64,000 nt of DNA from Bacteroidales bacterium (GCA_016285085.1 JAEEQA010000003.1:110-64109); one strand, 5' to 3'. Counted from the first letter of the stretch, positions 15,011-30,372 are shown. Translations and numbers: made by a program. The notes: generated from the letters alone by a model not told the origin.

Positions 15011-15081
15011 CTTCGACCATATACATTATTATAATGGGGAAATCGGAACCGACCATTTCCCCTTTTTTCATAAAAATAAAA

Positions 15082-16059
15082 ATGAAGAAAATCCTCCTTC
15101 CGTTTTTGGCTCTCCTGCTGACATTCTGCGGCTGCAAGAGCCACATTAACGACAAGACCAACTTCGACAGCATCGACGAGCACATGGAGTTCCGCAAGAT
15201 GGGCGACCTCGAAGTGGGCATCATCAGCATCCGGGGAACCAGCTTCGCGAAGATGGACTCAACCGAATCGCGGCAGTTCATGGATTCCGTCCTGCGCAAA
15301 GGCGTCAACTATATCGACCTGTGCGGCGCGGATACGACGGCGCTGAACAATGTCGCCCTCGCCCTGAAAGGTCGGCGCAACCAGATGATGATCCAAGGCC
15401 CGCTCGGCAACTGCTGGAAGGACAGCAAACACACCCGTCCCCGCAACGCAGCGGACTGCCAAGCCGACTTGGAGAAACTGCTCGCCCGCATCGGAACCGG
15501 CTACCTCAACGTGGGAATGCTTGAAAACATCAACAGCAAGGCAGAGTGGCAGAAACTCATGAAAAGTTCCTACATGAAGTATCTCGACCAACTGAAGGAG
15601 GAGGGAAAGATCAAGCGGCTCGGCCTCGTTTGCAGCAACGTGGATGCGGCCTACGCGGCTCTTCAGAGCGGAATAATCGAGGTGCTTCAGTTCCAGGTCA
15701 ACCCGAACAAAGACCTTATTCCGGCCGACTTCGACACGGAGGACTCCACCGCCGTCGCGGAACTCCTCGCCACCGCCGACACCATGCGGACCCGTCTGTA
15801 CGAGTATTGCAAGGAGTACAATATCGCCATCGTTATCGTAGAAAAAGAAAGTGGCAAAACCGACAAGTTCTCCCGCATGGAGCAGATGCATTTCGCACTG
15901 ACACGCCCGGGCGTGGTCAGCATCCTCTCAAACGCTTCTACCATGGAGGATTTTTCCCGCGACCTGCACTACCTCAGTGCCTCAGACGAAGAGAAGGATT
16001 TCACGCTCGAACTGATCCAGCCTGAACCCGACGAAGAAGAAATCACTTCCGACAACTAA
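15082..16059 (+). CDS. Lipoprotein with aldo/keto reductase-like (TIM barrel) body
   Basis: Start moved to ATG 15082 (MKKILLPFLALLLTFCGC lipobox). GVNYIDL and KIKRLGL regions resemble AKR family proteins. Tentative. Confidence 0.45.
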   Translation: MKKILLPFLALLLTFCGCKSHINDKTNFDSIDEHMEFRKMGDLEVGIISIRGTSFAKMDSTESRQFMDSVLRKGVNYIDLCGADTTALNNVALALKGRRNQMMIQGPLGNCWKDSKHTRPRNAADCQADLEKLLARIGTGYLNVGMLENINSKAEWQKLMKSSYMKYLDQLKEEGKIKRLGLVCSNVDAAYAALQSGIIEVLQFQVNPNKDLIPADFDTEDSTAVAELLATADTMRTRLYEYCKEYNIAIVIVEKESGKTDKFSRMEQMHFALTRPGVVSILSNASTMEDFSRDLHYLSASDEEKDFTLELIQPEPDEEEITSDN

Positions 16060-16071
16060 CCAAAAAACACC

Positions 16072-17313
16072 ATGAAAATCGAAATTATGTCCCCTGTGGG
16101 GTCTTACGAATCGTTGGCTGCCGCCATCCAGGCGGGTGCGGGCTCCGTCTATTTCGGCGTGGGCAAGATGAACATGCGGTCGCGTTCCGCCGCCAACTTC
16201 AACTTCGACGACCTGCGGAACATCACCGACATCTGCCGCCAGCACAACGTCAAGTCGTACCTCACGGTCAACACCATCGTCTATAACAATGAGTTGGACG
16301 AAGTTCGGCAGCTGCTCGACCTCGCCAAGGAGTGCCAAGTGTCGGCCATCATCGCCTCCGACTTCGCCGTGCTCAACTACTGCCGCCAAATCGGGCTGGA
16401 AATCCACATCTCCACCCAGTGCAACATCACCAACATCGAGGCGGTACGCTTCTTCTCGCAGTTCGCCGACGTGATGGTTCTCGGGCGCGAGGTGCCGCTG
16501 GTACAGATGGCGGAAATCACCCGTCAGATTCAAGAAGAAAACATTCGCGGGCCGAAAGGGGAACTGGTGCGCATCGAGGTGTTTGTCCACGGGGCGTTGT
16601 GCATGGCCGTTTCCGGCAAGTGCTACATCAGTCTCGACAACTACAACTACCCCGCCAATCGCGGGGCGTGCCTGCAACCTTGCCGCCGCGGCTACATCGT
16701 GAAGGACATGGAAACCGACCTTGAGCTGGCTGTTGAGAACAAATACATCATGTCACCGAAGGACCTGTGTACCATCGGTTTTCTGGACAAACTGCTGAAA
16801 GCCGGCGTCAGCATCCTCAAGATCGAGGGACGCGGACGGTCGGCGGAGTACGTCAAGGTGACGACCGAGTGCTACCATGAGGCGGTGGAGGCGGTGAACG
16901 ACGGCACCTTCACACTGGAGAAGGTGGAAGCGTGGACCGAAAGGCTGCGGAGCGTCTTCAACCGCGGCTTCTGGGACGGCTACTACCTCGGCCGCACGAT
17001 GGGCGAATGGTCGGAGCGGTACGGATCGCAGGCCACCACCGTGAGGACGCACATCGGCAAGGTGACGAACTTCTTCAGCAAGCTGAGCGTGGCCGAGATC
17101 ACCATCTTGTCCGACGAGATCGCCGTCGGCGACACGCTGGTCATCGAGGGACCGACCACGGGCGTTTACGAAACCACGGTGACGGAACTGCGCCTCGAGG
17201 TCGATCCAGTGCCGCGGGCGGTGAAGGGGCAGGTATGCTCCATCGCCACCGACGTGGTCGTCAAAAGGGGCGACAAAGTGTATAAGAAGAGACTTGTCGA
17301 AGAGGAATTCTAA
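16072..17313 (+). CDS. Peptidase U32 family protein
   Basis: 413 aa. U32 signature region IEVFVHGALCMAVSGKC. Confidence 0.85.
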   Translation: MKIEIMSPVGSYESLAAAIQAGAGSVYFGVGKMNMRSRSAANFNFDDLRNITDICRQHNVKSYLTVNTIVYNNELDEVRQLLDLAKECQVSAIIASDFAVLNYCRQIGLEIHISTQCNITNIEAVRFFSQFADVMVLGREVPLVQMAEITRQIQEENIRGPKGELVRIEVFVHGALCMAVSGKCYISLDNYNYPANRGACLQPCRRGYIVKDMETDLELAVENKYIMSPKDLCTIGFLDKLLKAGVSILKIEGRGRSAEYVKVTTECYHEAVEAVNDGTFTLEKVEAWTERLRSVFNRGFWDGYYLGRTMGEWSERYGSQATTVRTHIGKVTNFFSKLSVAEITILSDEIAVGDTLVIEGPTTGVYETTVTELRLEVDPVPRAVKGQVCSIATDVVVKRGDKVYKKRLVEEEF

Positions 17314-17339
17314 GACATAGTACCTAAGCAACTTTTTTG

Positions 17340-17347
17340 TACCTTTG
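17340..17347 (+). promoter_or_regulatory. -7 box TACCTTTG upstream of yicC
   Basis: 33 nt before ATG 17381. Confidence 0.55.
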
Positions 17348-17380
17348 CAACCTTGATTTTTGTAGGATAAAAAATACGTT

Positions 17381-18253
17381 ATGATTAAATCAATGACGGG
17401 CTTCGGGAAGGTGGATTTCAATTCCCATGCCAAGAATATTGTGGTGGAAATCAGATCATTGAACAGCAAACAGCTGGATTTGAATGCCCGCATCGCACCA
17501 CTTTTCCGTGACAAAGAGAACGAAATCCGCAGTCTCCTCGCCCAACGCATCGAGCGCGGCAAAGTCGATTTTTCCATCTATGTGGAACGGAACGAGGCGC
17601 CCTCCATCAGCATCAACAAGGAGCTGGCTGCCGCCTACTTTCAGGAGCTGAACATCCTCTCGAAGGAGCTGGACAACCCCGTGGAAAGCGACATCTTCAC
17701 GCAGATCCTGCGGCTGCCCGACGTGGTCACCACGCCCCGCGAAGAACTTCCCGACGACCTGTGGGAAGCCGCACTGAACGCCATTTCGGAAGCGTGCAAC
17801 AAGCTCGACCAGTTCCGCATCAGCGAAGGCGTTGCCCTCGCCGCCGACTTCGAAAAACGGGTCCGCCTCATTGACTCCCTCATTGACGAAATCACACCGT
17901 TTGAGAAACAACGCATTGTCACTCAACGGGAAAAGTTCGAAAAGGGCTTGGAAGACCTGCGCCAGAAAGGGCAGTACGATCCCAACCGCCTCGAACAGGA
18001 GATGATTTTCTATATCGAAAAACTGGACATCACCGAAGAGAAAGTCCGCCTGCGCAAGCATTGCAACTATTTCCTCGAAACGATGAGGGAACCAGAGTCG
18101 AAAGGCAAGAAACTCGGATTCATCGTGCAGGAGATGGGCCGCGAAGTCAACACCACCGGCTCCAAAGCGTGCGACTTCAACATCCAGCAGATTGTCGTCA
18201 AAATGAAAGACGAGGTTGAAAAACTGAAAGAACAGCTGGCCAACGTTTTGTAA
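17381..18253 (+). CDS. yicC: YicC/YloC family protein
   Basis: 290 aa. YicC N-terminal and DUF1732-like C-terminal pattern (QEMGREVNTTGSKA). Confidence 0.85.
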   Translation: MIKSMTGFGKVDFNSHAKNIVVEIRSLNSKQLDLNARIAPLFRDKENEIRSLLAQRIERGKVDFSIYVERNEAPSISINKELAAAYFQELNILSKELDNPVESDIFTQILRLPDVVTTPREELPDDLWEAALNAISEACNKLDQFRISEGVALAADFEKRVRLIDSLIDEITPFEKQRIVTQREKFEKGLEDLRQKGQYDPNRLEQEMIFYIEKLDITEEKVRLRKHCNYFLETMREPESKGKKLGFIVQEMGREVNTTGSKACDFNIQQIVVKMKDEVEKLKEQLANVL

Positions 18254-18281
18254 ATCAGAAAGACGCACAATACCATAATAT

Positions 18282-18307
18282 GAGATGCGATGAATCGCGT
18301 CTCTACA
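18282..18307. repeat. REP-like hairpin, GAGACG family (degenerate)
   Basis: GAGATGCGAT-ga-ATCGCGTCTC followed by TACA. Lies downstream of yicC. Confidence 0.7.
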
Positions 18308-18310
18308 TTG

Positions 18311-18366
18311 CCAAACCCCTAATCACTAACCCCTAACCCCTATACCCTAAAACCTATACCCTAAAA
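18311..18366 (+). repeat. C-rich heptad leader (CCCCTAA-like) directly upstream of der ATG
   Basis: ccaaacccctaatcactaacccctaacccctataccctaaaacctataccctaaaa, then ATG. Confidence 0.9.
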
Positions 18367-19671
18367 ATGAGCAACATATTATCCTTGGTCGGACGACCGA
18401 ATGTCGGCAAATCGACACTTTTCAACAGACTGACACAGAGCCGCGAGGCCATCGTGGACTCCATCGCCGGCGTGACCCGCGACCGTAACTACGGCAAGTC
18501 CGACTGGAACGGCTACGAGTTTTCCGTCATCGACACCGGCGGTTACGTGGTCGGCTCCACCGACATCTTCGAGGCCGAAATCCGCAAGCAGGCCGCCCTC
18601 GCCATTGAGGAATCGGACGTCATCGTGCTCGTGGTGGACGGACGCGAGGGACTCTCCCCGCTGGACGAGGAGATCGCCGCCGTGCTGCGCCGTTCCAAGA
18701 AACCGTTCTATCTGGCCGTCAATAAGATTGACAGTCCCTCCAACTTTTTCGACTACAGCGAGTTCTATGCTCTCGGCGTGGACGATCTTTTCCCGATTTC
18801 CGCTGTCTCGGGCAGCGGCACCGGTGAATTGCTGGACGCTGTGGTCAAGCATTTCTCCCACGAGGAGGACCACATCATCGACGAACTGCCGAAAATCACG
18901 GTGGTGGGCAAGCCCAACGTGGGCAAGTCCTCCATCATCAACACCTTCCTTGGCGAAGACCGTCACATCGTCACCCCCATCGCCGGCACCACCCGCGACT
19001 CCATCTTCACCCGCTACACCGGTTTCGGTTTTGACTTCTATCTCGTTGATACGGCGGGGCTTCGCAAAAAGAAAAAGGTGGAAGAAAACCTCGAGTTCTA
19101 CTCCGTGATGCGGGCCATCCGCGCCATTGAAAACAGCGATGTCTGCATCCTGATGTGCGATGCCTCCACCGGCTTCGATGCGCAGGACCTCAACATTTTC
19201 AGCCTCTGCGCCCGCAACAAGAAGGGCATCGTGGTGGTGATGAACAAGTGGGACCTCATCGAAAAGGACAACAAGACGCACGACCAGTACGAAGCCCTGA
19301 TTCGGCAACGTATCGAACCGTTCGACGACGTGCCGATCATCTTCACCTCCGTCATCAACAAGCAACGGATTTACAAGGTGTTGGACACGGCCATCCAGGT
19401 ACACAAGAGCCGGCAGCGCCGCATTCCCACCTCCGAGCTGAACGACTACCTCCTGCCGCTGATCCAGGCCACCCCGCCCCCAATCAACCGCGACAAGGTC
19501 ATCCGCATCAAGTTCGTGACGCAACTGCCGACCGTCACACCCTCCTTCGCCTTCTTCTGCAACCTGCCGCAGTATGTGAAAGAGTCGTACCAACGGTATT
19601 TGGAGAACCGCATCCGCGAGAAGTGGGACTTCCACGGCGTGCCGATCGAGATTTATTTCAGACAGAAGTAG
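18367..19671 (+). CDS. der: Ribosome biogenesis GTPase Der (EngA)
   Basis: 434 aa. Two tandem GTPase domains (GRPNVGKST, GKPNVGKSS) plus a KH-like C-terminus. Confidence 0.95.
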   Translation: MSNILSLVGRPNVGKSTLFNRLTQSREAIVDSIAGVTRDRNYGKSDWNGYEFSVIDTGGYVVGSTDIFEAEIRKQAALAIEESDVIVLVVDGREGLSPLDEEIAAVLRRSKKPFYLAVNKIDSPSNFFDYSEFYALGVDDLFPISAVSGSGTGELLDAVVKHFSHEEDHIIDELPKITVVGKPNVGKSSIINTFLGEDRHIVTPIAGTTRDSIFTRYTGFGFDFYLVDTAGLRKKKKVEENLEFYSVMRAIRAIENSDVCILMCDASTGFDAQDLNIFSLCARNKKGIVVVMNKWDLIEKDNKTHDQYEALIRQRIEPFDDVPIIFTSVINKQRIYKVLDTAIQVHKSRQRRIPTSELNDYLLPLIQATPPPINRDKVIRIKFVTQLPTVTPSFAFFCNLPQYVKESYQRYLENRIREKWDFHGVPIEIYFRQK

Positions 19672-19993
19672 CTCGCTGACGCTCGCATTCCTTTATTTTG
19701 GTTCGCTGACGCTCACCATTTTCAATTTTTGTTCGCTGGCGCGAACATTTGGGCAGGCTTACGCCTGCATTTTGCTCGCTGACGCTCGCATTGTGAGGAA
19801 AACGGTATCGTACCGTGTTTCTGGTACTCTCGGAAGAAAAAAACCACCTCGGAGAGGTGAGATTTTATTAACCCCTTACAAGGCGGCACGAAGTGACGCC
19901 GCAGTATGGGGATTGCGAGGCCCTCGCGCATCCGCCCGCGACACGGGCGGCAGATACGAAAGAACACCACAGGTGTGCCGCGGAAAAAGGGAG
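19671..19993. repeat. Repeat B, copy 1 (5 GCTCGC-type units + GC-rich hairpin module)
   Basis: Aligns by eye with 22623-22996 along its whole length. Starts at the der stop codon. Confidence 0.85.
19837..19868. terminator. Candidate bidirectional terminator inside repeat B1 (A7 - CACCTC ggA GAGGTG - AGATTTTATT)
   Basis: 6-bp GC-rich stem flanked by an A-run and a T-rich run. Lies between convergent der and OMP paralog 1. Same hairpin in B2 at about 22845-22860. Confidence 0.5.
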
Positions 19994-20047
19994 ATTCCGA
20001 TGTGTGGAATGAAGGGATGTTGAGTAGCGGCACTACTACCATTCCCT

Positions 20048-20599
20048 TCAAAACGTGTACCGTATTCCCAGGCACACGTTCCAGTCGAAATGGTGCCAGC
20101 GGACATTGTCCTTGATGAAAACACCATAGCCCGGACGGAAATCCAGCTGCACCGCCAACGGGATTTTGAAAACATACTCCAATCCCGCAATGACATTGGC
20201 ACCCAATTTTCCACCCTTGGCAATTCCTCTTTTGGCATCATACTTGTAACCTCTGGCATAATCTTCCAACGTGCCAAGATATGAAAACCACCAATTATAA
20301 CCGATTGACACTCCACCACCTACAAAAACATACCAATGAGGATTAAATTGTCCCTCATACATCAAATTGGGATTCAATACTACTGAGGACACCGTGACAT
20401 TACTCCAGTCTTCTCCACCCGTACACATGATCTGCAATCCCATATCGGCACTAAAGGCCACCTTTTCTGCCCAGAATGTCTTGTAAGAAAAGCCCCACAT
20501 CGTGCAACCAATCCCGCCGACACTATGCCGGTAGGGCGGTTGCGCCTGCAACGCCAATCCCGCAGCCATCAAGAATACCCAAAGGAGGATTTTTTTCAT
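20048..20599 (-). CDS. Small outer-membrane beta-barrel protein, paralog 1 (OmpX/OmpW-size)
   Basis: 183 aa. Signal peptide ...LALQAQ, alternating amphipathic strands, and C-terminal ...GIRYTF. Paralog of 23025..23573 and 24467..25021. Confidence 0.6.
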   Translation of the reverse strand: MKKILLWVFLMAAGLALQAQPPYRHSVGGIGCTMWGFSYKTFWAEKVAFSADMGLQIMCTGGEDWSNVTVSSVVLNPNLMYEGQFNPHWYVFVGGGVSIGYNWWFSYLGTLEDYARGYKYDAKRGIAKGGKLGANVIAGLEYVFKIPLAVQLDFRPGYGVFIKDNVRWHHFDWNVCLGIRYTF

Positions 20600-20601
20600 A
20601 A

Positions 20602-20636
20602 GTTTTTATGACCTGACATTTCGAGTGCGTTAAAAC
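20602..20636 (-). repeat. 35-nt repeat A, copy 1 (GTTTTAACGCACTCGAAATGTCAGGTCATAAAAAC on minus strand)
   Basis: Read directly. Identical to the other three copies. Ends 2 nt before the ATG of OMP paralog 1. Confidence 0.95.
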
Positions 20637-20652
20637 TCATGAGCAGAATAGA

Positions 20653-20874
20653 TCAGTTCTTAAAAATATCATCATAGGCTGCATATGTAAAAGATAGTGA
20701 GATAAGTATTGAAGAAATTACTATAATAAGCCAATTCTGCTTAATCTCAATCCAAGATAAAGGTCCGATACCCTTACTACTAAAAGAATGGTATAATAAT
20801 ACGTCTATTGTAATAGTGAACACAAAAGTTATAGAAAAAAGCAAGATTTTATTTTTTATTTTCTTTTTTTTCAT
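20653..20874 (-). CDS. Hypothetical 73-aa two-TM membrane peptide (AT-rich cassette)
   Basis: ORF track. Lys-rich N-terminus and two hydrophobic helices. Lies between two identical 35-nt repeats. Low GC. Confidence 0.35.
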   Translation of the reverse strand: MKKKKIKNKILLFSITFVFTITIDVLLYHSFSSKGIGPLSWIEIKQNWLIIVISSILISLSFTYAAYDDIFKN

Positions 20875-20894
20875 CAGAATTTGAATTACTTCTA

Positions 20895-20910
20895 AGTTTT
20901 AACGCACTCG
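20895..20910 (+). repeat. Partial (16-nt) inverted copy of repeat A
   Basis: GTTTTAACGCACTCGA on the plus strand, abutting full copy 2. Forms a perfect 16-bp inverted repeat with the far end of copy 2. Confidence 0.9.
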
Positions 20911-20945
20911 AGTTTTTATGACCTGACATTTCGAGTGCGTTAAAA
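20911..20945 (-). repeat. 35-nt repeat A, copy 2
   Basis: Read directly. Identical 35-mer. Confidence 0.95.
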
Positions 20946-21002
20946 CACTAATTTTCCCATTAGTATTCGTCCTCATAATAAGAGGAAGTCTTATTTCTGA
21001 CT

Positions 21003-21488
21003 TTATTCAAAAAAATACGTGTACTCTACAATTACAGGATATACATGTGTGCAAGCACCACCATTGGTAGGGAAACTATCAAAAGACAGCAAACCAGTAA
21101 CATAACATTTTCTTGAGATATCTACAGTGTCTGGAATATAACCCGAATAATAGTCCAATCGGACAGAAATCTCTGGTGGCTGGTTTCCGATACTTTGTAC
21201 TGCATATTCAGGATCGTCTGTAAGAAACCACTCCCCATTTTCCCAACTTCTTTTATCAAACCATCCACAGACCCGAATGGTGTCTCGATATAACTGATTC
21301 ATTATTTTGTTGTCCTGTCCCACAAAAAATGAATAATTGTATTTAATCGCCTTGCAGGTATTGTAGCCTGTCTCGGAAAGGGGTGGAATATCCTTGTCCT
21401 TCCATTTGTTGTGGCACTGCTTCTCGCAAGAAACGAAAAAAATGGCAATCATTAATGCAAGGAAATACAGATTAACTATTCTTTTCAT
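21003..21488 (-). CDS. Hypothetical lipoprotein (161 aa)
   Basis: MKRIVNLYFLALMIAIFFVSC lipobox. Cys-rich. Lower GC than surroundings. No family recognised. Confidence 0.5.
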   Translation of the reverse strand: MKRIVNLYFLALMIAIFFVSCEKQCHNKWKDKDIPPLSETGYNTCKAIKYNYSFFVGQDNKIMNQLYRDTIRVCGWFDKRSWENGEWFLTDDPEYAVQSIGNQPPEISVRLDYYSGYIPDTVDISRKCYVTGLLSFDSFPTNGGACTHVYPVIVEYTYFFE

Positions 21489-21630
21489 GATAAAATGAAT
21501 TTAAAGTTGTGATTAGAATTTGCCACCTTAACGAGACCCGATACGCCAATATTGCCCCTATTTTTCAATATTTAATCCCTCACGCCGGAAATGTGAACCC
21601 TATTGAGGGGATAAGGTGGTACAGAACACC

Positions 21631-21680
21631 TGTAGGGATGTCATATTATGGCATCCCTACAATTTATGGCATCCCTACAA
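21631..21680. repeat. REP-like hairpin, GGGATG family, plus duplicated right arm
   Basis: TGTAGGGATGTCATATTATGGCATCCCTACAA, followed by a second TATGGCATCCCTACAA. Confidence 0.85.
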
Positions 21681-21716
21681 TGACGCATTTAAATAACAAC
21701 AATGGTCGTATTGTTG

Positions 21717-21744
21717 GTAGAGACGCAAAATTTTGCGTCTCTAC
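21717..21744. repeat. REP-like hairpin, GAGACG family
   Basis: Perfect palindrome GTAGAGACGCAAAATTTTGCGTCTCTAC. Confidence 0.9.
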
Positions 21745-21762
21745 AATTACGTCACACAAAAA

Positions 21763-22587
21763 TCACCTCCGCCTCAGCTGCCAGAACGCCACCGCGGAGG
21801 CCGCAGCCACATTGAGGGAATCCACGTTGTGGAACATCGGGATGCGCACCACATAGTCGCAGCCGCTGATGGTACGTGCCGACAGGCCGTCGCCTTCGGT
21901 GCCCATGATCACCGCCAGCCGCTCGGTCGCGGCCAGCGCCGGGTCTTCGATAGAGACGGAGTTGTCCGACAGCGCCATCGCCGCCGTCTTGAAACCGAGC
22001 CGCCGGAGCCGCTCCATTCCCGCGTCGGGCCAGTCGGTGTGGACCTCGCCGATGTACGCCCACGGGATCTGGAACACCGTGCCCATGCTCACCCGCACCG
22101 TGCGCCGGTTGAGCGGGTCGCAGCTGGTGGGTGTCAGCAGCACGGCGTCGAAGCCGAGGGCGGCGGCGGAACGGAAGATGGCCCCGACGTTGGTGTTGTC
22201 CACCACATTGTCGAGCACCACGATACGGCGGGCGCCGTCGCACACCTCCTCCACTGTCCGTGGCTTCGGGCGGCGCATCGCACAAAGCACGCCGCGGGTC
22301 AGCCAATAACCGGCCAGCTCGGAGAGCAGCGACACCTCGCCCGTGTAGATGGGGATGTCACCGCAACGGGCAATCAGCTCGCGGGCGTCGCCTTCGATGT
22401 GGCGCTCCGCCATCAGCATCGCCAGCGGCTCGCACCCTTCGTCCAGCGCCACCTTGATCACCTTCGGACTCTCGGCGATGAAAATTCCCTTTTCCGGATC
22501 CAGGCGGTTGCGGAGTTGCGTTTCCGTCAGTTTGGAGAACACCTCCACGCCCGGAGCAGAAAGATCGGTGATGCGTACGATATTCAT
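21763..22587 (-). CDS. TrmH/SpoU family RNA 2'-O-methyltransferase
   Basis: Start moved to ATG 22587 (MNIVRITD...), just downstream of a TACCTTTG box. Motifs VVLDNVVDNTNVGAIFRSAAALG, IMGTEGDGLS and SLNVAAA. Confidence 0.85.
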   Translation of the reverse strand: MNIVRITDLSAPGVEVFSKLTETQLRNRLDPEKGIFIAESPKVIKVALDEGCEPLAMLMAERHIEGDARELIARCGDIPIYTGEVSLLSELAGYWLTRGVLCAMRRPKPRTVEEVCDGARRIVVLDNVVDNTNVGAIFRSAAALGFDAVLLTPTSCDPLNRRTVRVSMGTVFQIPWAYIGEVHTDWPDAGMERLRRLGFKTAAMALSDNSVSIEDPALAATERLAVIMGTEGDGLSARTISGCDYVVRIPMFHNVDSLNVAAASAVAFWQLRRR

Positions 22588-22605
22588 ATTCTCAGTTTTG
22601 GACGG

Positions 22606-22613
22606 CAAAGGTA
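22606..22613 (-). promoter_or_regulatory. -7 box TACCTTTG upstream of trmH-family gene
   Basis: 18 nt before ATG 22587. The repeat B2 array begins 9 nt further upstream. Confidence 0.55.
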
Positions 22614-22622
22614 CGATTTTTT

Positions 22623-22996
22623 GGCTCGCTTGCACTCACATTTTTGATTTTGCTCACTGCGTTCGCATTTGGGCTCGCTAACGCTCGCATTCGTTGATTT
22701 GGATTCGCTTGCGCTCACCATTTTCAATTTTTGTTCGCTGGCGCGAACATTTGGGCAGGCTGTCGCCTGCATTTTGCTCGCTAACGCTCGCATTGTGAGG
22801 GAAACGGTATCGTGCCGTGTTTCTGGCACTCTCGGAAGGAAAATCCACCTCGGAGAGGTGAGATTTTATTAACCCCTTACAAGGCAGAACGAAGTGACGC
22901 CGCAGTATGGGGATTGCGAGGCCCTCGCGCGTCCGCCCGCGGCACGGGCGGCAGATACGAAAGAATACCGCAGGTGATGCCGCGGAAAAAGGGAGA
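22623..22996. repeat. Repeat B, copy 2 (7 GCTCGC-type units + GC-rich hairpin module)
   Basis: Longest copy. Lies between the OMP paralog 2 stop and the trmH-family promoter. Confidence 0.85.
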
Positions 22997-23024
22997 GGTA
23001 TGGTCGAAGGTTATACCATTCCCT

Positions 23025-23573
23025 TCAGAACGTGTACCTCACCCCTGCATTGACACTCCAGTCGAAATGATGCCAGATATAATCTGGAATATCATTGAAG
23101 AATATTCCATAGCCCGGACGGAAGTCAAACTGCAGAGTGAGAGGGATATTCAGCTTATACTCCAATCCCAGCATGGCATTGACCCCGAACTTAGCCATAT
23201 CCCAATGGAAATGATTAACATCAGGACGCCAACAATCCCAAGAATAACCTAGACTCACACCACCACCGGCAAAGCCATAAAGTCCCGATACGAAGTTGCC
23301 TTCATACAAGAAGTTAGGGTTTAGCTCCAGATTCCAGAAATCATAAGATTTACATTTCGGATCGTGGTTTTGTCCCTCACTGTCAGTACAAAGAATTTTG
23401 GTCCCTAGGTCCACTTGGATGGCGAAATGGTCGGTTACAAAAGTCTTGTAGGAGAAGGCCTGCATACTTCCAAGCGTGGCACCGATACTGTGTTTGTACG
23501 GAGTTTGGGCTTTCAAAGTACCCACTAAGCAGAAAATGGCGCAAATGGCTGTGACAAAGATTTTTCTTTTCAT
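23025..23573 (-). CDS. Small outer-membrane beta-barrel protein, paralog 2
   Basis: 182 aa. Signal peptide ...GTLKAQ and C-terminal GVRYTF. Very similar to paralog 3 except for three blocks. Confidence 0.65.
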   Translation of the reverse strand: MKRKIFVTAICAIFCLVGTLKAQTPYKHSIGATLGSMQAFSYKTFVTDHFAIQVDLGTKILCTDSEGQNHDPKCKSYDFWNLELNPNFLYEGNFVSGLYGFAGGGVSLGYSWDCWRPDVNHFHWDMAKFGVNAMLGLEYKLNIPLTLQFDFRPGYGIFFNDIPDYIWHHFDWSVNAGVRYTF

Positions 23574-23603
23574 GATAAAATGAATTTGAATTTGTGATTA
23601 GAA

Positions 23604-23638
23604 GTTTTAACGCACTCGAAATGTCAGGTCATAAAAAC
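23604..23638 (+). repeat. 35-nt repeat A, copy 3
   Basis: Read directly. Identical 35-mer. Begins 30 nt upstream of the ATG of OMP paralog 2. Confidence 0.95.
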
Positions 23639-23671
23639 CCAAATGCAAAAAACAGAATATCGGAAGTCGGT

Positions 23672-24283
23672 TCATTCAAAAAGGGGAATAAGAAATCTAA
23701 TATAACAATCTGACAACTGTGATTTTTTTGGAAATAAATATACTGGGGAACTATAGATTCTGTTGTATTCATAATTAAAGCGCCTAGCTTGGATATAGAC
23801 TGACAAAAAACAACTGGTGTTGTAGGTGAATATTTTATAATGTGCTTCCCCCTCCTCAATTATTTTGACTATTGAGGAATGTGGCTGCCATTCATCCGTA
23901 AATGAATTTTTTACCCGATAGTAAAGCATACTATCTTTGATTGCAGGTAAAATGACACGATGTAAAAACGTATAGCCAACTTCTTTATGAAATGAATGAG
24001 GTTTTAGCATATTCTTGGCAAATTTTCTTCCGCTGATAGTTTTTTGGGGTATGTCAAGTGTGTCAGACCAATAATACAATTTAGCTTGATTATCAAAAAT
24101 GCGGTTCTTGACGAAAGGAGGATTCTTTTTCAAATTATAAAAACAGTACAGTGTATCAAAGTGTTGAACTGTTGATATGATGACATCTTTTTCTGAATAC
24201 ACATAACTATCTGTCTTCTTTTGAGCCATTGATATTTTACATAAAAACAGCCAAGCAAGACATACTATAAGATGTTTTTTCAT
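23672..24283 (-). CDS. Hypothetical secreted protein (203 aa, AT-rich cassette)
   Basis: Signal peptide MKKHLIVCLAWLFLCKISMAQ. Low GC. Bracketed by two identical 35-nt repeats. No family recognised. Confidence 0.5.
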   Translation of the reverse strand: MKKHLIVCLAWLFLCKISMAQKKTDSYVYSEKDVIISTVQHFDTLYCFYNLKKNPPFVKNRIFDNQAKLYYWSDTLDIPQKTISGRKFAKNMLKPHSFHKEVGYTFLHRVILPAIKDSMLYYRVKNSFTDEWQPHSSIVKIIEEGEAHYKIFTYNTSCFLSVYIQARRFNYEYNRIYSSPVYLFPKKSQLSDCYIRFLIPLFE

Positions 24284-24403
24284 AAAACATTTTATTTTTT
24301 ATATTGGAGTTTACCCTGCATTTCTTCGCCATTTTTTATGCCTGATGTGGTAGCCATAGCATCGCTACTTGTTTTTGGATTGCCGCTTGTTACGGTTCCT
24401 GTG

Positions 24404-24438
24404 GTTTTAACGCACTCGAAATGTCAGGTCATAAAAAC
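24404..24438 (+). repeat. 35-nt repeat A, copy 4
   Basis: Read directly. Identical 35-mer. Lies 28 nt beyond the stop of OMP paralog 3. Confidence 0.95.
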
Positions 24439-24466
24439 GGTATGGTCGAAGGTTATACCATTCCCT

Positions 24467-25021
24467 TCAGAACGTGTACCTCACGCCGGCGTTGACACTC
24501 CAGTCGAAAAAATTCAACTCATTGTTGGGAAGGTCATTGAAGAACATCCCGTAGCCGGGGCGAAAATCAAACTGCAAGGTGAGGGGAATGTTCAGTTTGT
24601 ACTCCAATCCCAGCATGGCATTGACCCCGAACTTACCCATATCCCAATACTCCCCAAAACGAAACACTCCGGGTTTCCATGCATCCCAAGAATAACCCAA
24701 GCTCACGCCACCACCGGCAAAGCCATACAGACCCGCTACAAGGTTGCCTTCATACAAGAAATTGGGATTCAGTTCCAAATCCCAGAAATCAAAAGCTTTC
24801 CATTTCGCACCGTGGTTTTGTCCCTCACCGTCGGTACAAAGAATTTTGGTACCCAAATCTATCTGAATGGCAAAATGATCGGTTACAAAAGTCTTGTAGG
24901 AGAAGGCCTGCATGCTGCCAAGCGTGGCACCAATACTGTGTTTGTAAGGAGCTTGGGCTTTCAAAGTACCCACTAAGCAGAAAATGGCGCAAATGGCTGT
25001 GACAAAGATTTTTCTTTTCAT
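24467..25021 (-). CDS. Small outer-membrane beta-barrel protein, paralog 3
   Basis: 184 aa. Same signal peptide as paralog 2 and C-terminal GVRYTF. Confidence 0.65.
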   Translation of the reverse strand: MKRKIFVTAICAIFCLVGTLKAQAPYKHSIGATLGSMQAFSYKTFVTDHFAIQIDLGTKILCTDGEGQNHGAKWKAFDFWDLELNPNFLYEGNLVAGLYGFAGGGVSLGYSWDAWKPGVFRFGEYWDMGKFGVNAMLGLEYKLNIPLTLQFDFRPGYGMFFNDLPNNELNFFDWSVNAGVRYTF

Positions 25022-25164
25022 GATAAAATGAATTTGAATTTGTGATTAGAATTTGCACCCCATAACGGGAATCGCTGCGGCGATATTGCCCCTGTTTTGC
25101 GGTATTTAATCCCTCACAACAGAAATGTGAACCCTATTGAGGGGATATGATGGTTCAGGACACC

Positions 25165-25196
25165 TGTAGGGATGTCATAATATGGCATCCCTACAA
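25165..25196. repeat. REP-like hairpin, GGGATG family
   Basis: TGTAGGGATGTCATAATATGGCATCCCTACAA. Confidence 0.85.
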
Positions 25197-25225
25197 TCAC
25201 GCACATTAACAATGGTCGTATTATT

Positions 25226-25255
25226 TGTAGAGACGTTTCATGAAACGTCTCTACA
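25226..25255. repeat. REP-like hairpin, GAGACG family
   Basis: TGTAGAGACGTTTCATGAAACGTCTCTACA, identical to 12356-12385. Confidence 0.9.
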
Positions 25256-25267
25256 ATCACACCGTGC

Positions 25268-26293
25268 CTATTTCTCCGTAATTTTCTTTAAATCATTAAT
25301 AAATGAATCGATATCGGCTTCGGTGGTGTCCCAAGAGGTCACCAAGCGGATTTCGTTCGTCTGCTCATCCCACACATAGAAGAAGTGGTTTTTCAGAAGC
25401 TGCTCCGTCACATCGGGGGCCAGTTTGAGGAGCAGGGTGTTGGCCTGCGTAGGCTGCGTGAATTCGAAGTTGCCCGTCTCTTCGATGCGGCGGCGGAGCA
25501 GCTGCGCCATCGCGTTGGCGTGCGCAGCATTCTTGTACAGAAGGTCGTTGTCGAAGTAGGCCAGAAACTGGGCGGCGACGTACCGCATCTTCGAGAAGAG
25601 CTGGGTGGTCTGCTTGCGGAGGTAGCGGAGCTCCGTGGCCAGTTCGGGACGGAGGGCGATGACGGCCTCGGCCATCATGCAGCCGTTCTTGGTGCCGCCG
25701 AAGCTGATGATGTCGGCCCCGCAGTCGGTGGTCAGCGCCCTGACGGTGGTGCCGAGGGCGACAGCCGCGTTGGCGAGGCGGGCGCCGTCGATGTGGAGGT
25801 ACATGCCGTAGGAGTGGACGAAATCGGCGAGGGCGCGGAGTTCATCTGGGGTATAGACGGTGCCCAATTCGGTAACTTCGGACACATAGACCACACGCGG
25901 TTGGGAGTGGTGCTCGAAGCCGAAGCCGTGGAGCAGCGGCCGGATGAGGTCGGGCGTGAGCTTGCCGTCGGGCGCGGGCACCTCCTTGACGGCAGCACCG
26001 GAGAGGTAGCCGGGGGCGTTGCACTCGTCCACGGCGATGTGGGCGGTGGCGGCGGCGATGATGGCATGGTAGGGGCGGCAGCAGGCCCGCATGGCGATGG
26101 TGTTGGCGCCGGTGCCGTTGAACACGAAGAAGGGTTCGGCCGTTTCACCGAAAACCTCCTTCAGGCGGTGCGTGGCGCGGAGGGTCCAGTCGTCATCACC
26201 GTAGGCGAGGGCGTGGTCGGCATTTGCATTGAGGATGGCCTCCATCACCTGCGGATGAACGCCTGAATTGTTGTCACTTCCGAAACTTCTCAT
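25268..26293 (-). CDS. ltaE: Low-specificity L-threonine aldolase (beta-eliminating lyase family)
   Basis: Start moved to ATG 26293 (MRSFGSDNNSG...), downstream of a TACCTTTG box. GGTKNG PLP-lysine region. Confidence 0.85.
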   Translation of the reverse strand: MRSFGSDNNSGVHPQVMEAILNANADHALAYGDDDWTLRATHRLKEVFGETAEPFFVFNGTGANTIAMRACCRPYHAIIAAATAHIAVDECNAPGYLSGAAVKEVPAPDGKLTPDLIRPLLHGFGFEHHSQPRVVYVSEVTELGTVYTPDELRALADFVHSYGMYLHIDGARLANAAVALGTTVRALTTDCGADIISFGGTKNGCMMAEAVIALRPELATELRYLRKQTTQLFSKMRYVAAQFLAYFDNDLLYKNAAHANAMAQLLRRRIEETGNFEFTQPTQANTLLLKLAPDVTEQLLKNHFFYVWDEQTNEIRLVTSWDTTEADIDSFINDLKKITEK

Positions 26294-26312
26294 AGTGGTT
26301 AGTTTTGGGCGG

Positions 26313-26320
26313 CAAAGGTA
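26313..26320 (-). promoter_or_regulatory. -7 box TACCTTTG upstream of ltaE
   Basis: 19 nt before ATG 26293. The repeat B3 array begins 10 nt further upstream. Confidence 0.55.
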
Positions 26321-26330
26321 CAACTTTTCG

Positions 26331-26443
26331 GGCTCGCTTACGCTCGCATTCTTTGATTCTGCTCACTGCGTTCGCATTTGGGCTCGCTGACGCGAACATT
26401 TGGGCAGGCTCACGCCTGCATTTTGCTCGCTGTGCTCGCATTT
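26331..26443. repeat. Repeat B, copy 3 (array part only, internally deleted)
   Basis: Units match B2 units 1, 2, a 3/5 fusion, 6 and 7. Lies immediately upstream of the ltaE promoter box. Confidence 0.8.
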
Positions 26444-26502
26444 CTTTCCACTTTTTCAACATTTTATTGTTTAAAAGCATCCTCTTTCCGAAAAATTAAT
26501 AG

Positions 26503-26510
26503 TACCTTTG
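26503..26510 (+). promoter_or_regulatory. -7 box TACCTTTG upstream of rpoD (long leader)
   Basis: 113 nt before ATG 26624. Confidence 0.5.
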
Positions 26511-26623
26511 CAAACTTTTTTCGCAAGGGTGTTTTTTCTTGTAACAAAATGCGAAAACAAGCCGTAAAATGGTCTGTTTGAACAAGATTTGGACAAAAAA
26601 TATTTAGAAACAAAATACTGAAT

Positions 26624-27487
26624 ATGAGACAATTAAACATTACCAAGCAGGTAACGAACCGTGAAACCGCCTCGTTGGACAAATATCTGCACGATATTGG
26701 CAAAGTGGAGCTGATTACCGCGGAAGAAGAGGTGGAATTAGCGCGAAAAATCAAGGACGGTGACCAGGAGGCATTGGAGAAACTCACCAAAGCGAACCTC
26801 CGTTTCGTCGTTTCCGTCGCCAAGCAGTACCAAAACCAGGGACTCAGCCTCCCCGACCTCATCAACGAGGGCAACCTCGGCCTCATCAAGGCAGCCCAGC
26901 GTTTCGATGAAACCCGCGGCTTCAAATTCATCTCCTACGCCGTATGGTGGATCCGCCAGTCCATTCTCCAAGCCCTGGCCGAACAGTCGCGTATCGTTCG
27001 TCTGCCGCTCAACAAGATCGGCACCATCAACAAGATCAACAAGGCCTACGCCTATTTGGAACAGGAGTACGAGCGCGAACCCCGCGCCGATGAAATCGCT
27101 GCCCTGCTCGACATCACCGAGTCGGAGGTGAAAGATTCAATGCGCAACTCCTCCCGCCACCTCTCCATGGATGCCTCCCTCACACAGGACAAGGACAACA
27201 ACATGTACGACGTCCTCAAGTCGGAAGACTCCCCCACCCCGGACAAAGGCCTTCTGTACGAGTCGCTGAAACAAGAAATCAACCGCACCATCTCCACGCT
27301 CCCGCAGCGCGAAGCCGACATCATCAAACTGTACTTCGGACTCGACAGCAAGCACCCGATGACCCTCGAGGAAATCGGTGAGAAATTCGACCTCACCCGC
27401 GAACGCGTCCGCCAGATCAAGGAGAAGGCCATCCGCCGCCTCAAGAATCAGGCGAAATGCAAGAACCTCAAGGCCTATTTGGGGTAA
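26624..27487 (+). CDS. rpoD: RNA polymerase primary sigma factor
   Basis: 287 aa. Sigma-70 regions 2-4 ([36 protein letters not shown]). The size is typical of Bacteroidota sigma-A. Confidence 0.95.
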
Positions 27488-27521
27488 ATATTTAACAGAC
27501 AATTTATTACAAAATCCTATT

Positions 27522-27557
27522 TGTAGAGACGCAAAATTTTGCGTCTCTACATTTTTT
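27522..27557 (+). terminator. rpoD intrinsic terminator (REP-like GAGACG hairpin + T6)
   Basis: TGTAGAGACGCAAAATTTTGCGTCTCTACA followed by TTTTTT. Confidence 0.8.
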
Positions 27558-27627
27558 ATGGAAACCACCGCCATTATTTTTGTGGGGACCACCATCATTT
27601 ATATGTAAACCCAATCAATATTTTTCG

Positions 27628-27635
27628 TACCTTTG
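27628..27635 (+). promoter_or_regulatory. -7 box TACCTTTG upstream of valS
   Basis: 28 nt before ATG 27664. Confidence 0.55.
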
Positions 27636-27663
27636 CCCGCTTTTTATACAATATTATATAAAG

Positions 27664-30372
27664 ATGGAAATTGCTACAAAGTACGAACCGCAACTGATTG
27701 AAGACAAATGGTATAGCTTTTGGATGGAACACAAGTTGTTCGCCTCCAAACCCGATGGAAGACCTGCTTATTCCGTGGTAATCCCCCCGCCGAACGTAAC
27801 GGGCGTGCTGCACATGGGGCACATGCTTAACAATACGATACAGGATATTCTGGTGCGCCGCGCCCGCATGATGGGCTTCAACGCCTGCTGGGTGCCCGGC
27901 ACCGACCACGCCTCCATCGCCACCGAGTCGAAGGTGGTGGCCAAACTCGCCAAAGAAGGCATCAAGAAATCGGACCTCACCCGCGAGCAGTTCCTCCAGC
28001 ACGCATGGCAATGGAAAGAGGAACACGGCGGCGTGATTCTGGAACAGCTGAAAAAACTCGGCGCCTCATGCGACTGGGACCGCACCGCGTTCACCATGGA
28101 CGAGGTCCGCAGCCAGTCAGTGCTGAAAGTGTTTGTTGATTTATATCGCAAGGGCTTGATTTACCGCGGACTGCGTATGGTCAATTGGGACCCGAAGGCG
28201 CAGACCGTGTTGAGCACCGAAGAGGTCATCTACCGTCAGGAGAAGAGCAAGCTCTACTACCTGCGCTACTATGTGGCCGACGCCGACGAAAACCCGGTGA
28301 AACCCACCGGCTTGGAAGGCGAAATCCTGCACAAGGACGACAAGGGCTACTACGCTGTGGTGGCCACCACCCGCCCCGAAACCATCATGGGCGACACCGC
28401 CATGTGCATCAACCCGAAGGACCCGAAGAACCAGTGGCTGCGCGGCCACAAGGTGATTGTGCCGCTCGTGGGACGCGTCGTTCCCGTCATCGAGGACCGC
28501 TATGTGGACATCGAGTTCGGTACAGGCTGCCTGAAAGTGACGCCCGCCCACGACATCAACGACTACGCCCTCGGCCAGACACACCATCTGGAGACCATCG
28601 ACATCTTCAATCCCGACGGCACGCTGTCGGAGGCCGCCGGTCTCTACGTCGGCCAAGACCGCATGGACGTGCGCAAGCAGATCGTCATCGACCTGAAAGC
28701 CGCCGACCTGATGGAGAAGATCGAGGATTACGACAACAAGGTGGGCTACTCGGAACGCAACCAGGACACCGCCGTAGAGCCGCGTCTTTGCAAGCAGTGG
28801 TTCCTCTCCATGAAGCACTTCGCCGAAATCGCCCTGCCGCCCGTCCTCGAAGGCAAGATCCAATTCCACCCCAACAAATACGTGACCACCTACCGCAACT
28901 GGCTGGAGAACATCCAAGACTGGTGCATCAGCCGCCAGCTCTGGTGGGGGCACCGCATTCCGGCGTACTTCCTGCCGACGGCGGAGGACGAGGAGGAGAA
29001 GTTTGTAGTGGCGCTCACCGACGAGGAGGCGCTGGCCGAAGCCCGCAAGATCAAAGGTTACGAGAACATCACCGCCGAGCAGCTCCGTCATGATGAGGAC
29101 GCCCTCGACACATGGTTCTCGTCGTGGCTGTGGCCCATCTCGCTTTTCGACGGCATCAACAACCCCGGCAACCCCGAAATCAACTACTACTACCCGACCA
29201 ACGACCTCGTGACCGGCCCCGACATCATCTTCTTCTGGGTGGCCCGCATGATCATGGCCGGCGAAGAATACCTGAATGACATCCCGTTCCGCAACGTCTA
29301 TTTCACCGGCATTGTGCGCGACAACCTCGGGCGCAAGATGTCGAAATCGCTCGGCAACTCGCCCGATCCCATCATGCTGATGGAGAAATACGGTTCCGAC
29401 GGTGTGCGCGTGGGCATGCTGCTCTGCTCGCCCGCCGGCAACGACCTGCTGTTCGACGAAGGTCTGTGCGGACAAGGCCGCAACTTCAGCAACAAGATCT
29501 GGAACGCATTCCGCCTCATCAAGGGGTGGCAGGTGGAAGAGAACCTGGCACAGCCGCTGCACACGAAGGCCGCCATCGAGTGGTTCAACTGCCGTCTGCA
29601 AGAAGTGCTGGGCGAAATCAACGACCATTTCGACAAGTTCCGCATCTCCGACGCGCTGATGGCCACCTACAAGCTCATCTGGGACGACTTCTGCTCCTAC
29701 TTCCTGGAGATCGTGAAACCCGCCTACCAGCAGCCCATCGACGGCAAGAGCTACAGCGACATCCTCGACATCTTCGAGAACCTGATGAAGATGCTGCACC
29801 CGTTCATGCCGTTCCTCACCGAGGAGTTGTGGCACGGGCTGAAAGAGCGCGGCGAGAACGAATCCATCATGGTGAGCCAGCTGCCGAAGTGGGACGAAGC
29901 CAAAGCGAAAAGCGACATCCTCACCCGTTTCACCGCCATGCAAAAGGTGGTGGAGGGCGTACGCCGTGTCCGCAACGACCGCAACATCGCCCCCAAGAAT
30001 GCACTGGACCTCCTCGTATTAAAGAAGGATGCGCCCGATGCAGAGATGGACGCCATCATCACGAAGCTGTGCAACCTCTCTTCCATCCAGTACGTTACGG
30101 AAAAAGTCAGCGGGGCATGCTCGTTCATTGAGAACAACACCGAGTACCTCATCCCGATGGCCCAGAACATCAACACGGAGGAAGAACTGAAAAAATTACA
30201 GGCCGACCTCGACTATGCCGAGAAGTTCCTCAAATCGGTGATGGGCAAGCTGTCGAACGAGCGTTTTGTCAACAATGCACCGGAACAGGTGGTGGCGGTG
30301 GAACGCAAGAAGAAGGCCGACGCGGAGGAGAAGATCCGGATTCTGAAGGAGAAAATTGCGGAATTACAATAA
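27664..30372 (+). CDS. valS: Valine--tRNA ligase
   Basis: Start moved to ATG 27664 ([10 protein letters not shown]...). HIGH-type (LHMGH) and KMSKS motifs. C-terminal coiled coil. Confidence 0.97.

Follow-up and report, generated by a model that had tools for sequence, protein, structure and literature searches.

What kind of process leaves small, foreign-looking genes standing between perfect copies of one short repeat is the question raised by a 64,000-nucleotide stretch of DNA from a Bacteroidales bacterium (GCA_016285085.1 JAEEQA010000003.1:110-64109), hereafter referred to as the window. A 35-nucleotide sequence, GTTTTAACGCACTCGAAATGTCAGGTCATAAAAAC (the 35-mer), occurs in it four times with 100% identity, in two pairs that each enclose a single small gene amid paralogous genes for an outer-membrane protein (OMP). 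An initial annotation of the window had likened this pattern to the integration of circular one-gene cassettes by site-specific recombination, as in integrons. The four 35-mers are orphan copies of a repeat that forms the junctions in an undescribed gene-cassette array, which sits in the accessory-gene ('moron') slot of phages of rumen Bacteroidales and in phage-derived chromosomal islets.

The 35-mer as the junction repeat of gene-cassette arrays

The presence of four identical copies was borne out by an exact-match scan of the window, while 100 shuffles gave 0 matches (0 expected by chance) and no fifth copy was found in the window at up to 3 mismatches. The copies are as follows:

20602-20636, minus strand: 35-mer copy 1, exact match to GTTTTAACGCACTCGAAATGTCAGGTCATAAAAAC
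20912-20946, minus strand: 35-mer copy 2, exact match to GTTTTAACGCACTCGAAATGTCAGGTCATAAAAAC
23604-23638, plus strand: 35-mer copy 3, exact match to GTTTTAACGCACTCGAAATGTCAGGTCATAAAAAC
24404-24438, plus strand: 35-mer copy 4, exact match to GTTTTAACGCACTCGAAATGTCAGGTCATAAAAAC

Copy 2 had been placed one base too low (20911-20945) in the initial annotation, and the interval between copies 1 and 2 is 275 bp (20637-20911) instead of the 274 bp given there; the positions of the other three copies and the 765 bp between copies 3 and 4 stand. Sequence comparison also confirmed that homology between the copies ends at the edges of the 35-mer.

Outside the window the exact 35-mer was found at 17 loci, every one of them in rumen Bacteroidales: 4 loci, in three metagenome-assembled genomes, among 185,579 species-representative genomes, and 13 loci among 241 million metagenome records. 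Among the 2.9 million viral contigs of IMG/VR there were 0 matches to the exact 35-mer, to its 22-nt core, to a degenerate 32-nt version of it or to the leader of the arrays described below; GenBank phages and PLSDB plasmids, searched by blastn with the array region and with the 35-mer, returned nothing meaningful, and a full-text literature search for the sequence retrieved no paper containing it. At the 17 loci the repeat always marks junctions of gene fragments and it does not fold stably as DNA or as RNA (-0.5 to -0.6 kcal/mol, not beyond what shuffled sequences give), which upholds its earlier interpretation as a specific cassette-boundary element.

In the direction of the cassette genes the 35-mer reads GTTTTTATGACCTGACATTTCGAGTGCGTTAAAAC. 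Canonical arrays consist of repeats and near-copies in the same orientation, spaced 250-2300 bp apart with one open reading frame (ORF) per interval, and are built in a fixed order:

Part 1: a 198-aa phage structural gene and terminator, adjoining the capsid protease and major capsid genes
Part 2: a conserved, array-specific leader of ~100 bp, ending ...GTACCATTTTACAG
Part 3: the 35-mer plus one DNA fragment, one or more times
Part 4: a degenerate last 35-mer (..GTTAAACT), with an AAACT end instead of AAAAC
Part 5: 28 nt, then a conserved trailer of ~160 nt of phage backbone with a terminator, then the next phage gene

The last 35-mer may also carry C16T, A23G and G26A, and 2-5 positions distinguish the terminal copies from the internal ones. 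This anatomy recurs in about a dozen independent contigs, in which the 35-mer punctuates multi-cassette arrays, and this supports the cassette interpretation of the initial annotation. The array lies inside phage contigs in L003 and L032-L034 (loci are cited by L numbers) and also in chromosomes, often with just the 3' stump of the 198-aa gene. Chromosomal arrays are located beside a DUF5689 lipoprotein gene in L001, L005, L009, L013 and L038, and at other sites in L004, L012 and L058; at the DUF5689 site the cassette sets of L001, L005, L009/L013 and L038 are entirely different. In related phages the slot is filled by ordinary morons; neither the 35-mer nor the array-specific leader is present there, and a second repeat family was looked for in these phages and not found. 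Neither the leader nor the trailer of the canonical array is present in the window, and its four 35-mers are therefore orphans.

Identity among the repeats is 35/35 or 34/35, also at loci whose adjoining leader reaches no more than 84-92%. In the 35-mer one can make out two inverted arms of 13 nt, imperfect (9/13 matching), on either side of a 9-nt centre, and most of the variants seen fall in that centre (positions 14, 16 and 23). Three Logan contigs end within the first repeat, which is what a branching assembly graph would produce. The shortest interval, in L010 (535-565), is a 31-bp sequence between two perfect 35-mers directly after the leader, with no exact 24-nt match in IMG/VR and none in the loci obtained.

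The cassette fragments range from 31 bp to 2.2 kb and usually hold one complete gene for a secreted protein or lipoprotein. All complete cassette genes (17/17, in 11 distinct arrays) read away from the leader. The 35-mer lies 8-125 nt from the ATG, and for several genes the distance is only 8-20 nt; because so little sequence separates repeat and start codon, their transcription probably begins in the leader or in cassettes further upstream. Most products are secreted, and they are of many kinds, among them a Fib_succ_major lipoprotein, an FN3 protein with a type IX secretion system (T9SS) tail, a sortilin-type protein, a META lipoprotein, an MBL-fold enzyme, a cation-efflux protein and many ORFans. 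The GC content is 0.29 and 0.33 for the cassettes of L009 and 0.45-0.59 for other cassettes. Several fragments have arbitrary ends: a cassette in L005 ends with an inverted C-terminal piece of an MBL gene, the first repeat in L007/L008 is joined to the interior of a truncated PHP-domain gene, and in L004 a truncated 68-aa ORF runs into the repeat. More than 40 distinct junctions between the 35-mer and unrelated DNA were collected, all of them exactly at an edge of the 35-mer.

The cassette of the window that carries the gene orf203 (23639-24403) provides a further view of these edges. It opens with ~120 nt that resemble another gene's final 35 codons and then holds orf203, and it is 95.7% identical to a sequence in three independent assemblies (L040, L041 and L042), in which the homology has the outer edge of copy 4 and that of copy 3 as its exact limits. 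No 35-mer occurs within 20 kb of it in these three assemblies at up to 10 mismatches, no direct repeat flanks it, and the sequence on either side is unrelated. The 5' gene piece is truncated at the same base in L040, with an in-frame stop ahead of it, so the orf203 fragment is an insertion there too. The orf203 cassette is a discrete piece of DNA whose ends exclude the 35-mer. Together with the more than 40 edge-exact junctions, this repeat-less cassette points to a process that joins DNA at the borders of the repeat, not to a crossover inside a cassette-borne site.

A 407-bp fragment of a low-GC lipoprotein gene was also observed, 92% identical between L013 (230-636) and L040 (9092-9498), in unrelated chromosomal contexts, with sharp end-points and no 35-mers; gene-sized fragments thus evidently move outside the arrays too.

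The backbone around the arrays has features of its own. In all phages of the family the accessory slot is followed by the conserved ~160-nt element (GGGCGACCGGGCACGCTTTCCGCTCGAAT...CGTTGTCGCGG and terminator), with sites at L003:690-860, L019:11347-11399 and 15968-16031, L039, and L040:8850-8985 (reversed). It is duplicated in L019, persists in chromosomal remnants, belongs to no Rfam family and may be a small RNA or regulatory region. Phage stumps made up of the 3' part of the 198-aa gene, the terminator, accessory genes and the trailer occur at at least five chromosomal sites (L039, L056, L058, L012 and L038), with no integrase in view. The related phages L019, L020, L021 and L018 encode RadC, ArdC-N, ORF6N and one OMP_b-brl_2 beta-barrel accessory gene; outer-membrane beta-barrels are therefore among the cargo of this phage family. 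A scan of eight loci for tRNA and tmRNA genes found none, and the trailer is thus not a tRNA-type attachment (att) site. The 35-mer was ruled out as a phage att core, as the islets keep leader and trailer in unrecombined order with no prophage between them.

The window locus and its relatives

The inserts of the window and the OMP genes among which they lie are listed below:

20637-20911, minus strand: 275-bp cassette with orf73, between copies 1 and 2
20653-20874, minus strand: orf73, two predicted transmembrane segments, GC 0.26
21003-21488, minus strand: orf161, lipoprotein gene of low GC content joined to the native OMP leader
23639-24403, minus strand: 765-bp cassette with orf203, between copies 3 and 4
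23672-24283, minus strand: orf203, signal peptide, GC 0.32
20048-20599, minus strand: OMP paralog 1, ortholog of the second OMP gene of L027
23025-23573, minus strand: OMP paralog 2, upstream leader cut to 30 nt by copy 3
24467-25021, minus strand: OMP paralog 3, a mosaic gene by sliding identity on the alignment

Copy 1 stands 2 nt upstream of the ATG of OMP paralog 1, inverted with respect to the usual repeat-to-gene orientation; copy 3 is 30 nt from the ATG of paralog 2, and copy 4 lies 28 nt past the stop of paralog 3. These three distances had been given correctly in the initial annotation, and the 16-nt inverted partial 35-mer described there is real as well, at 20896-20911, abutting copy 2, with which it forms a perfect hairpin with a 16-bp stem. 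The partial copy occupies the orf73-proximal end of the 275-bp cassette, in canonical orientation for orf73, and no other anti-repeat of the 35-mer was found. An inverted orf73 cassette that retains 16 nt of an upstream repeat would be expected from an imprecise cut out of a donor array and re-insertion in the inverted orientation.

The low GC content attributed to the inserts (0.25-0.35, against 0.45-0.70 in adjacent genes) was verified, and third-position GC is 0.38 in orf161 and 0.30 in orf203, with 0.65-0.85 in housekeeping genes. No family in Pfam or NCBIfam matches orf73, orf161 or orf203. The family of orf161, which sits where relatives have an OMP gene, is small (53 representatives at E<=1e-3, lipoproteins of ~160 aa), and viral contigs gave no relative of it. 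Six relatives of orf203 were found, and its AlphaFold model (6 sequences) has a mean pLDDT of 43.7, too poor for a structure search.

Six loci (L011 and L022-L026) are from the same strain as the window (99.7-99.98% identical) and show no variation. L031 (~88-94% identical) has the aldolase gene, the leader, one OMP gene and SpoU, and lacks orf203, the second OMP gene and the 35-mer; OMP paralog 2 has no counterpart between the aldolase gene and SpoU of L031. In L027/L028 (~92-93% identical) the order is SpoU, leader, OMP, a 9-nt spacer, a second OMP orthologous to paralog 1, and Der, with neither orf161 nor orf73 nor the 35-mer. Homology to these two loci is lost 10 nt into orf161, at ATGAAAAGAA, and resumes at window position 20601, adjoining copy 1. 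The expectation of breakpoints exactly at the 35-mer thus holds on the side of copy 1 and fails on the side of orf161, where the junction of the orf161/orf73 block is a microhomology inside the start of the ORF. L006 (~81% identical) has an OMP gene, the identical 28-nt hairpin and a 35-mer, followed by a different cassette with a 209-aa gene, which runs directly into chromosomal promoter-like sequence. The inserts are therefore foreign in composition and strain-variable, as had been proposed, being absent from L031 and L027/L028 and replaced by another cassette in L006. Relatives with an empty site holding a single 35-mer were not seen; L031 and L027/L028 are without the repeat altogether.

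OMP paralog 3 records how the locus may have been assembled. Its middle part matches the OMP gene of L031 (1789-2343) at 99-100% identity, compared with no more than 88-91% in the flanking genes, which suggests a recent horizontal exchange of the paralog 3 allele between lineages. Its final ~50 nt, together with the 28-nt hairpin, resemble those of paralog 2 and L006 (97%), and its first ~80 nt are identical to paralog 2. As the OMP genes are mosaic in identity, the simplest reading is that array segments would have entered the window locus by homologous recombination within OMP coding sequence, and that OMP genes also exist as cassettes (30 nt, ORF and 28 nt). Homologous recombination through OMP genes explains the copies of the window best, in preference to the local site-specific insertion proposed for them in the initial annotation.

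Other intergenic repeats occur around the OMP genes. A family of ~30-nt units (GCTCGCTnACGCTCGCATT...) forms clusters at 19666-19800, 22619-22802 and 26327-26408, and the segments 19671-19975 and 22673-22976, located after OMP paralogs 1 and 2, are 92-95% identical. An upstream leader of ~250 bp is duplicated ahead of orf161 (21489-21750) and of OMP paralog 3 (25022-25267); it holds the perfect palindromes TGTAGGGATGTCATATTATGGCATCCCTACA and GTAGAGACGCAAAATTTTGCGTCTCTAC, which resemble repetitive extragenic palindromes (REP), and the motif AGGGTTCACATTTCCGGCGTGAGGGATTAAATATT, which recurs at the start of a cassette in L001 (2575-2613) and in front of the OMP genes of L006 and L031. The rest of the window looks like chromosome of housekeeping type (ValS, Der, YicC, an RpoD-like sigma factor, DnaJ, MurA and others).

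A proposed joining site and the competing explanations

The explanation favoured here, plausible though falling somewhat short of probable, is that the 35-mer is a dedicated DNA-joining site in a modular gene-cassette array, at which fragments are inserted and the repeat is regenerated. In its favour are junctions lying exactly at the repeat edges, fragments with arbitrary ends, the cassette that lacks repeats, the leader and degenerate terminal repeat, the 31-bp interval of L010 and the inverted orf73 cassette of the window with its 16 nt of an upstream repeat. An enzyme encoded elsewhere would insert DNA fragments at the outer edges of the 35-mer, and the repeat would be regenerated on both sides of the insert, as in target-site duplication or in spacer integration into clustered regularly interspaced short palindromic repeats (CRISPR). 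Recombination between identical 35-mers would then shuffle and spread the cassettes, with ordinary homologous recombination through flanking genes adding to their spread. Orphan pieces of arrays would have entered the hypervariable OMP-paralog locus of the window, recombining through cassette-borne OMP genes, and would have brought in orf203, orf73 and the adjoining orf161. A more far-reaching form of this proposal, in which a phage-borne, leader-polarised array captures whole genes as CRISPR arrays capture spacers and represents a new gene-capture mechanism distinct from integrons, is regarded as unlikely. A repeat-specific integrase acting in trans would in that case insert kilobase-sized fragments at the borders of the 35-mer, duplicating the repeat, and could also release fragments cut exactly at the repeat edges.

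Several observations weigh against a joining site. No cas1, integrase or transposase gene adjoins any array or was seen in the window, and no recombinase is encoded among 39 ORFs of the related phages. L040 has no target duplication around the orf203 cassette. No cassette is common to two distinct arrays among the loci obtained, so that the mobility of single cassettes is inferred and not seen. The co-orientation of all 17 cassette genes fits a directional recombinase or selection better than capture in random orientation. Repeat variants are mixed within arrays (L001 and L004), and this non-uniformity implies that repeats also move between arrays. Finally, the genome and metagenome collections searched contained no CRISPR array with this exact repeat, and Rfam searches of the window region (E<=10) and of ten loci (E<=1) gave no CRISPR repeat or other family, the sole matches being a chance miRNA match and a sub-threshold ctRNA match on a terminator.

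The leader side of the arrays holds the phage structural gene or a fragment of it and not a recombinase, and no recombinase family of Pfam was detected within -10/+3.7 kb of the L038 array. The initial annotation had seen no integrase, transposase or cas gene in the 64 kb, and the same was found here in the ORF list read by eye, without a full hidden Markov model (HMM) scan; Pfam calls on the window, made through L022, cover 14800-28382. The only recombinase seen near any array is a 235-aa serine recombinase of the resolvase family in L012 (6512-7219, minus strand), 1.7 kb beyond the trailer. It was rejected as the array recombinase, being found at only one locus and outside the array, and is just a lead.

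An integron-like or dif-module-like process is considered an improbable source of the arrays. Circles with one 35-mer each would undergo conservative site-specific recombination by a recombinase supplied in trans, with accretion at the leader side. Direct identical repeats with all 17 complete genes co-oriented are what such a process would leave, the 13-9-13 arm-and-centre appearance of the 35-mer with its variants clustered in the centre fits it too, and the repeat variants form mosaics within arrays. The terminal variant of the 35-mer reads GTTAAAC, and thus fits the integron core-site consensus GTTRRRY. The dif modules, which lack a recombinase of their own and are presumed to be moved in trans, offer a precedent (PMC6449649, PMC13141974). 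However, no recombinase was seen beside any array or in the parts of the phages that were seen, the 35-mer does not fold in the manner of attC, and arbitrary fragments that cut through genes leave the genesis of the cassettes unaccounted for. The orf203 cassette is a further difficulty, for it has the same ends with no 35-mer or half-site, which a crossover inside the 35-mer cannot yield, and none of the relatives compared with the window strain shows an empty site marked by one 35-mer. The integron-like interpretation offered in the initial annotation is thus supported in part: the cassette boundary, the variability and the arrays speak for it, and the missing recombinase, the lack of an attC-like fold, the lack of empty sites and the repeat-less orf203 cassette speak against it.

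The 35-mer might instead be a regulatory linker (a promoter, operator or RNA signal) whose identical copies are acted on by general or phage homologous recombination, in the manner of the promoter early stem-loops (PeSLs) of phages, and this too is doubtful. The repeat precedes each cassette gene by 8-125 nt and always points the same way, the arrays occupy the hyperplastic slot of the phages, and the cassettes of the window have demonstrably moved by homologous recombination in flanking genes; moreover, ~35 bp is within the range used by phage single-strand-annealing recombinases. The PeSL precedent even includes mini-circles (PMC2839356). Against these points, no Bacteroidetes -33/-7 promoter motif was recognised in the 35-mer by eye and it has no stem-loop, and no additional copies occur in 10 kb of phage genome outside the accessory slot. 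Regulation with homologous recombination also leaves unexplained the more than 40 edge-exact joins to unrelated DNA, the repeat-less orf203 cassette with identical ends, and the decay of the terminal copy alone.

Descent from CRISPR, as a phage mini-array or as anti-CRISPR decoy repeats that were later split by genes and that act at the RNA level with host Cas proteins, is very unlikely. The 35-mer is 35 nt long, starts with GTTTT, ends with AAAAC and is unstructured, and repeats of type II CRISPR systems resemble it in length, in the GTTTT start, in the AAAAC end and in lack of structure; the arrays have a leader and a degenerate terminal repeat, and L010 provides one interval of 31 bp. Yet no cas genes were seen and the collections held no normally spaced array, there is no match to the CRISPR direct-repeat families (CRISPR-DR) of Rfam, the 31-mer has no exact 24-nt match in IMG/VR, an anti-repeat is limited to the 16-mer of the window, and the other intervals are 250-2300 bp.

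That the 35-mer is a generic intergenic repeat (a REP, a miniature inverted-repeat transposable element or a terminator) lying beside these genes by coincidence is scarcely credible even in a region rich in other intergenic repeats, being contradicted by its distribution, which comprises just four copies in the 64 kb and 17 further loci, every one at a cassette junction, and by the lack of a fold, of terminal inverted repeats and of flanking duplication.

Comparison with known systems

The arrays share with integrons a one-sided conserved platform, co-oriented and mostly single-gene cassettes and a recurring site. As in integrons, including sedentary arrays with near-identical attC sites such as the VCRs of Vibrio, the cassette content at one locus differs between strains, and the sequence ahead of several cassette genes is too short to hold a separate promoter. 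In contrast, integrons have an adjacent tyrosine recombinase of the IntI type on the attI side, whereas the arrays have no adjacent integrase; attC sites are 57-141 nt long, fold and are cassette-specific, whereas the array site is 35 bp, identical in all units and unfolded. An integron cassette keeps its own site, unlike the orf203 cassette, which lacks the 35-mer in L040, L041 and L042. The arbitrary fragments, the closing degenerate copy with its trailer and the carriage by phages further set the arrays apart from integrons.

With CRISPR arrays they have in common a leader, identical unstructured repeats of ~35 nt and a degenerate terminal repeat, and the inserted DNA is joined exactly at both borders of the repeat, as in Cas1-Cas2 integration and casposon target-site duplication. 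Phage-borne mini-CRISPR arrays without cas genes are known, and the cassette arrays are likewise without them, with one 31-bp interval. CRISPR spacers, however, are ~25-40 bp, in contrast to array intervals of 250-2300 bp that hold expressed-looking genes in one orientation, and no cas genes, array with normal spacers or Rfam repeat family were found for the cassette arrays.

The initial annotation had been reminded of the recombinase-associated acquired interbacterial defence (rAID-1) clusters of Bacteroidales. These are defined by an XerD-like tyrosine recombinase lying 5', with >44% identity to BF9343_RS08045 and by at least two co-directional downstream genes with a GC content of <=41% and repetitive intergenic sequence (10.1101/471110). 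The arrays resemble them in host order and in the many signal peptides, and some arrays (L009, with GC 0.29 and 0.33) also in small low-GC co-directional genes with repetitive sequence between them; other cassettes have a GC content of 0.45-0.59. The likeness does not extend to membership, as the defining XerD-like recombinase is found at the leader side of no array, where the platform is a phage gene and leader instead. In addition, rAID-1 genes are immunity homologs, whereas cassette products match no immunity family in Pfam or NCBIfam (no dedicated immunity database was searched), and the repeat pairs of the window hold one gene each.

The PeSLs of T4-type phages are similar in that short repeats flank non-essential ORFs in a hyperplastic region with modular shuffling (PMC2839356, PMC4122927). 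A PeSL, however, consists of a promoter and a terminator stem-loop and is variable in sequence (PMC2839356, PMC4122927), whereas the 35-mer is invariant, shows neither a stem-loop nor a promoter that could be recognised, and belongs to a polar array with leader and trailer. The dif modules of Acinetobacter plasmids are also comparable, being gene modules with short sites and no recombinase of their own, the enzyme being presumed to act in trans. Their pdif sites are 28 bp long (11-6-11), alternate in orientation and are located on plasmids (PMC6449649, PMC13141974), in contrast to the directly repeated 35-mers, which are 13-9-13 at best and lie in a phage slot.

In practical terms, the arrays break metagenome assemblies, with contigs ending inside the repeat, and they mark strain-variable surface-protein loci in rumen Bacteroidales. 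If the 35-mer is indeed a dedicated joining site, phages of an abundant gut and rumen order would load surface and secreted proteins into the chromosomes of their hosts, and the arrays would bear on how cassettes first arise and on CRISPR-type repeat duplication beyond immunity. Failing the defining features of both integrons and CRISPR arrays, the cassette arrays stand nearest to the former in outcome and nearest to the latter in anatomy, and on the joining-site explanation they would represent a second, mechanistically different solution to the stockpiling and exchange of single accessory genes that integrons achieve.

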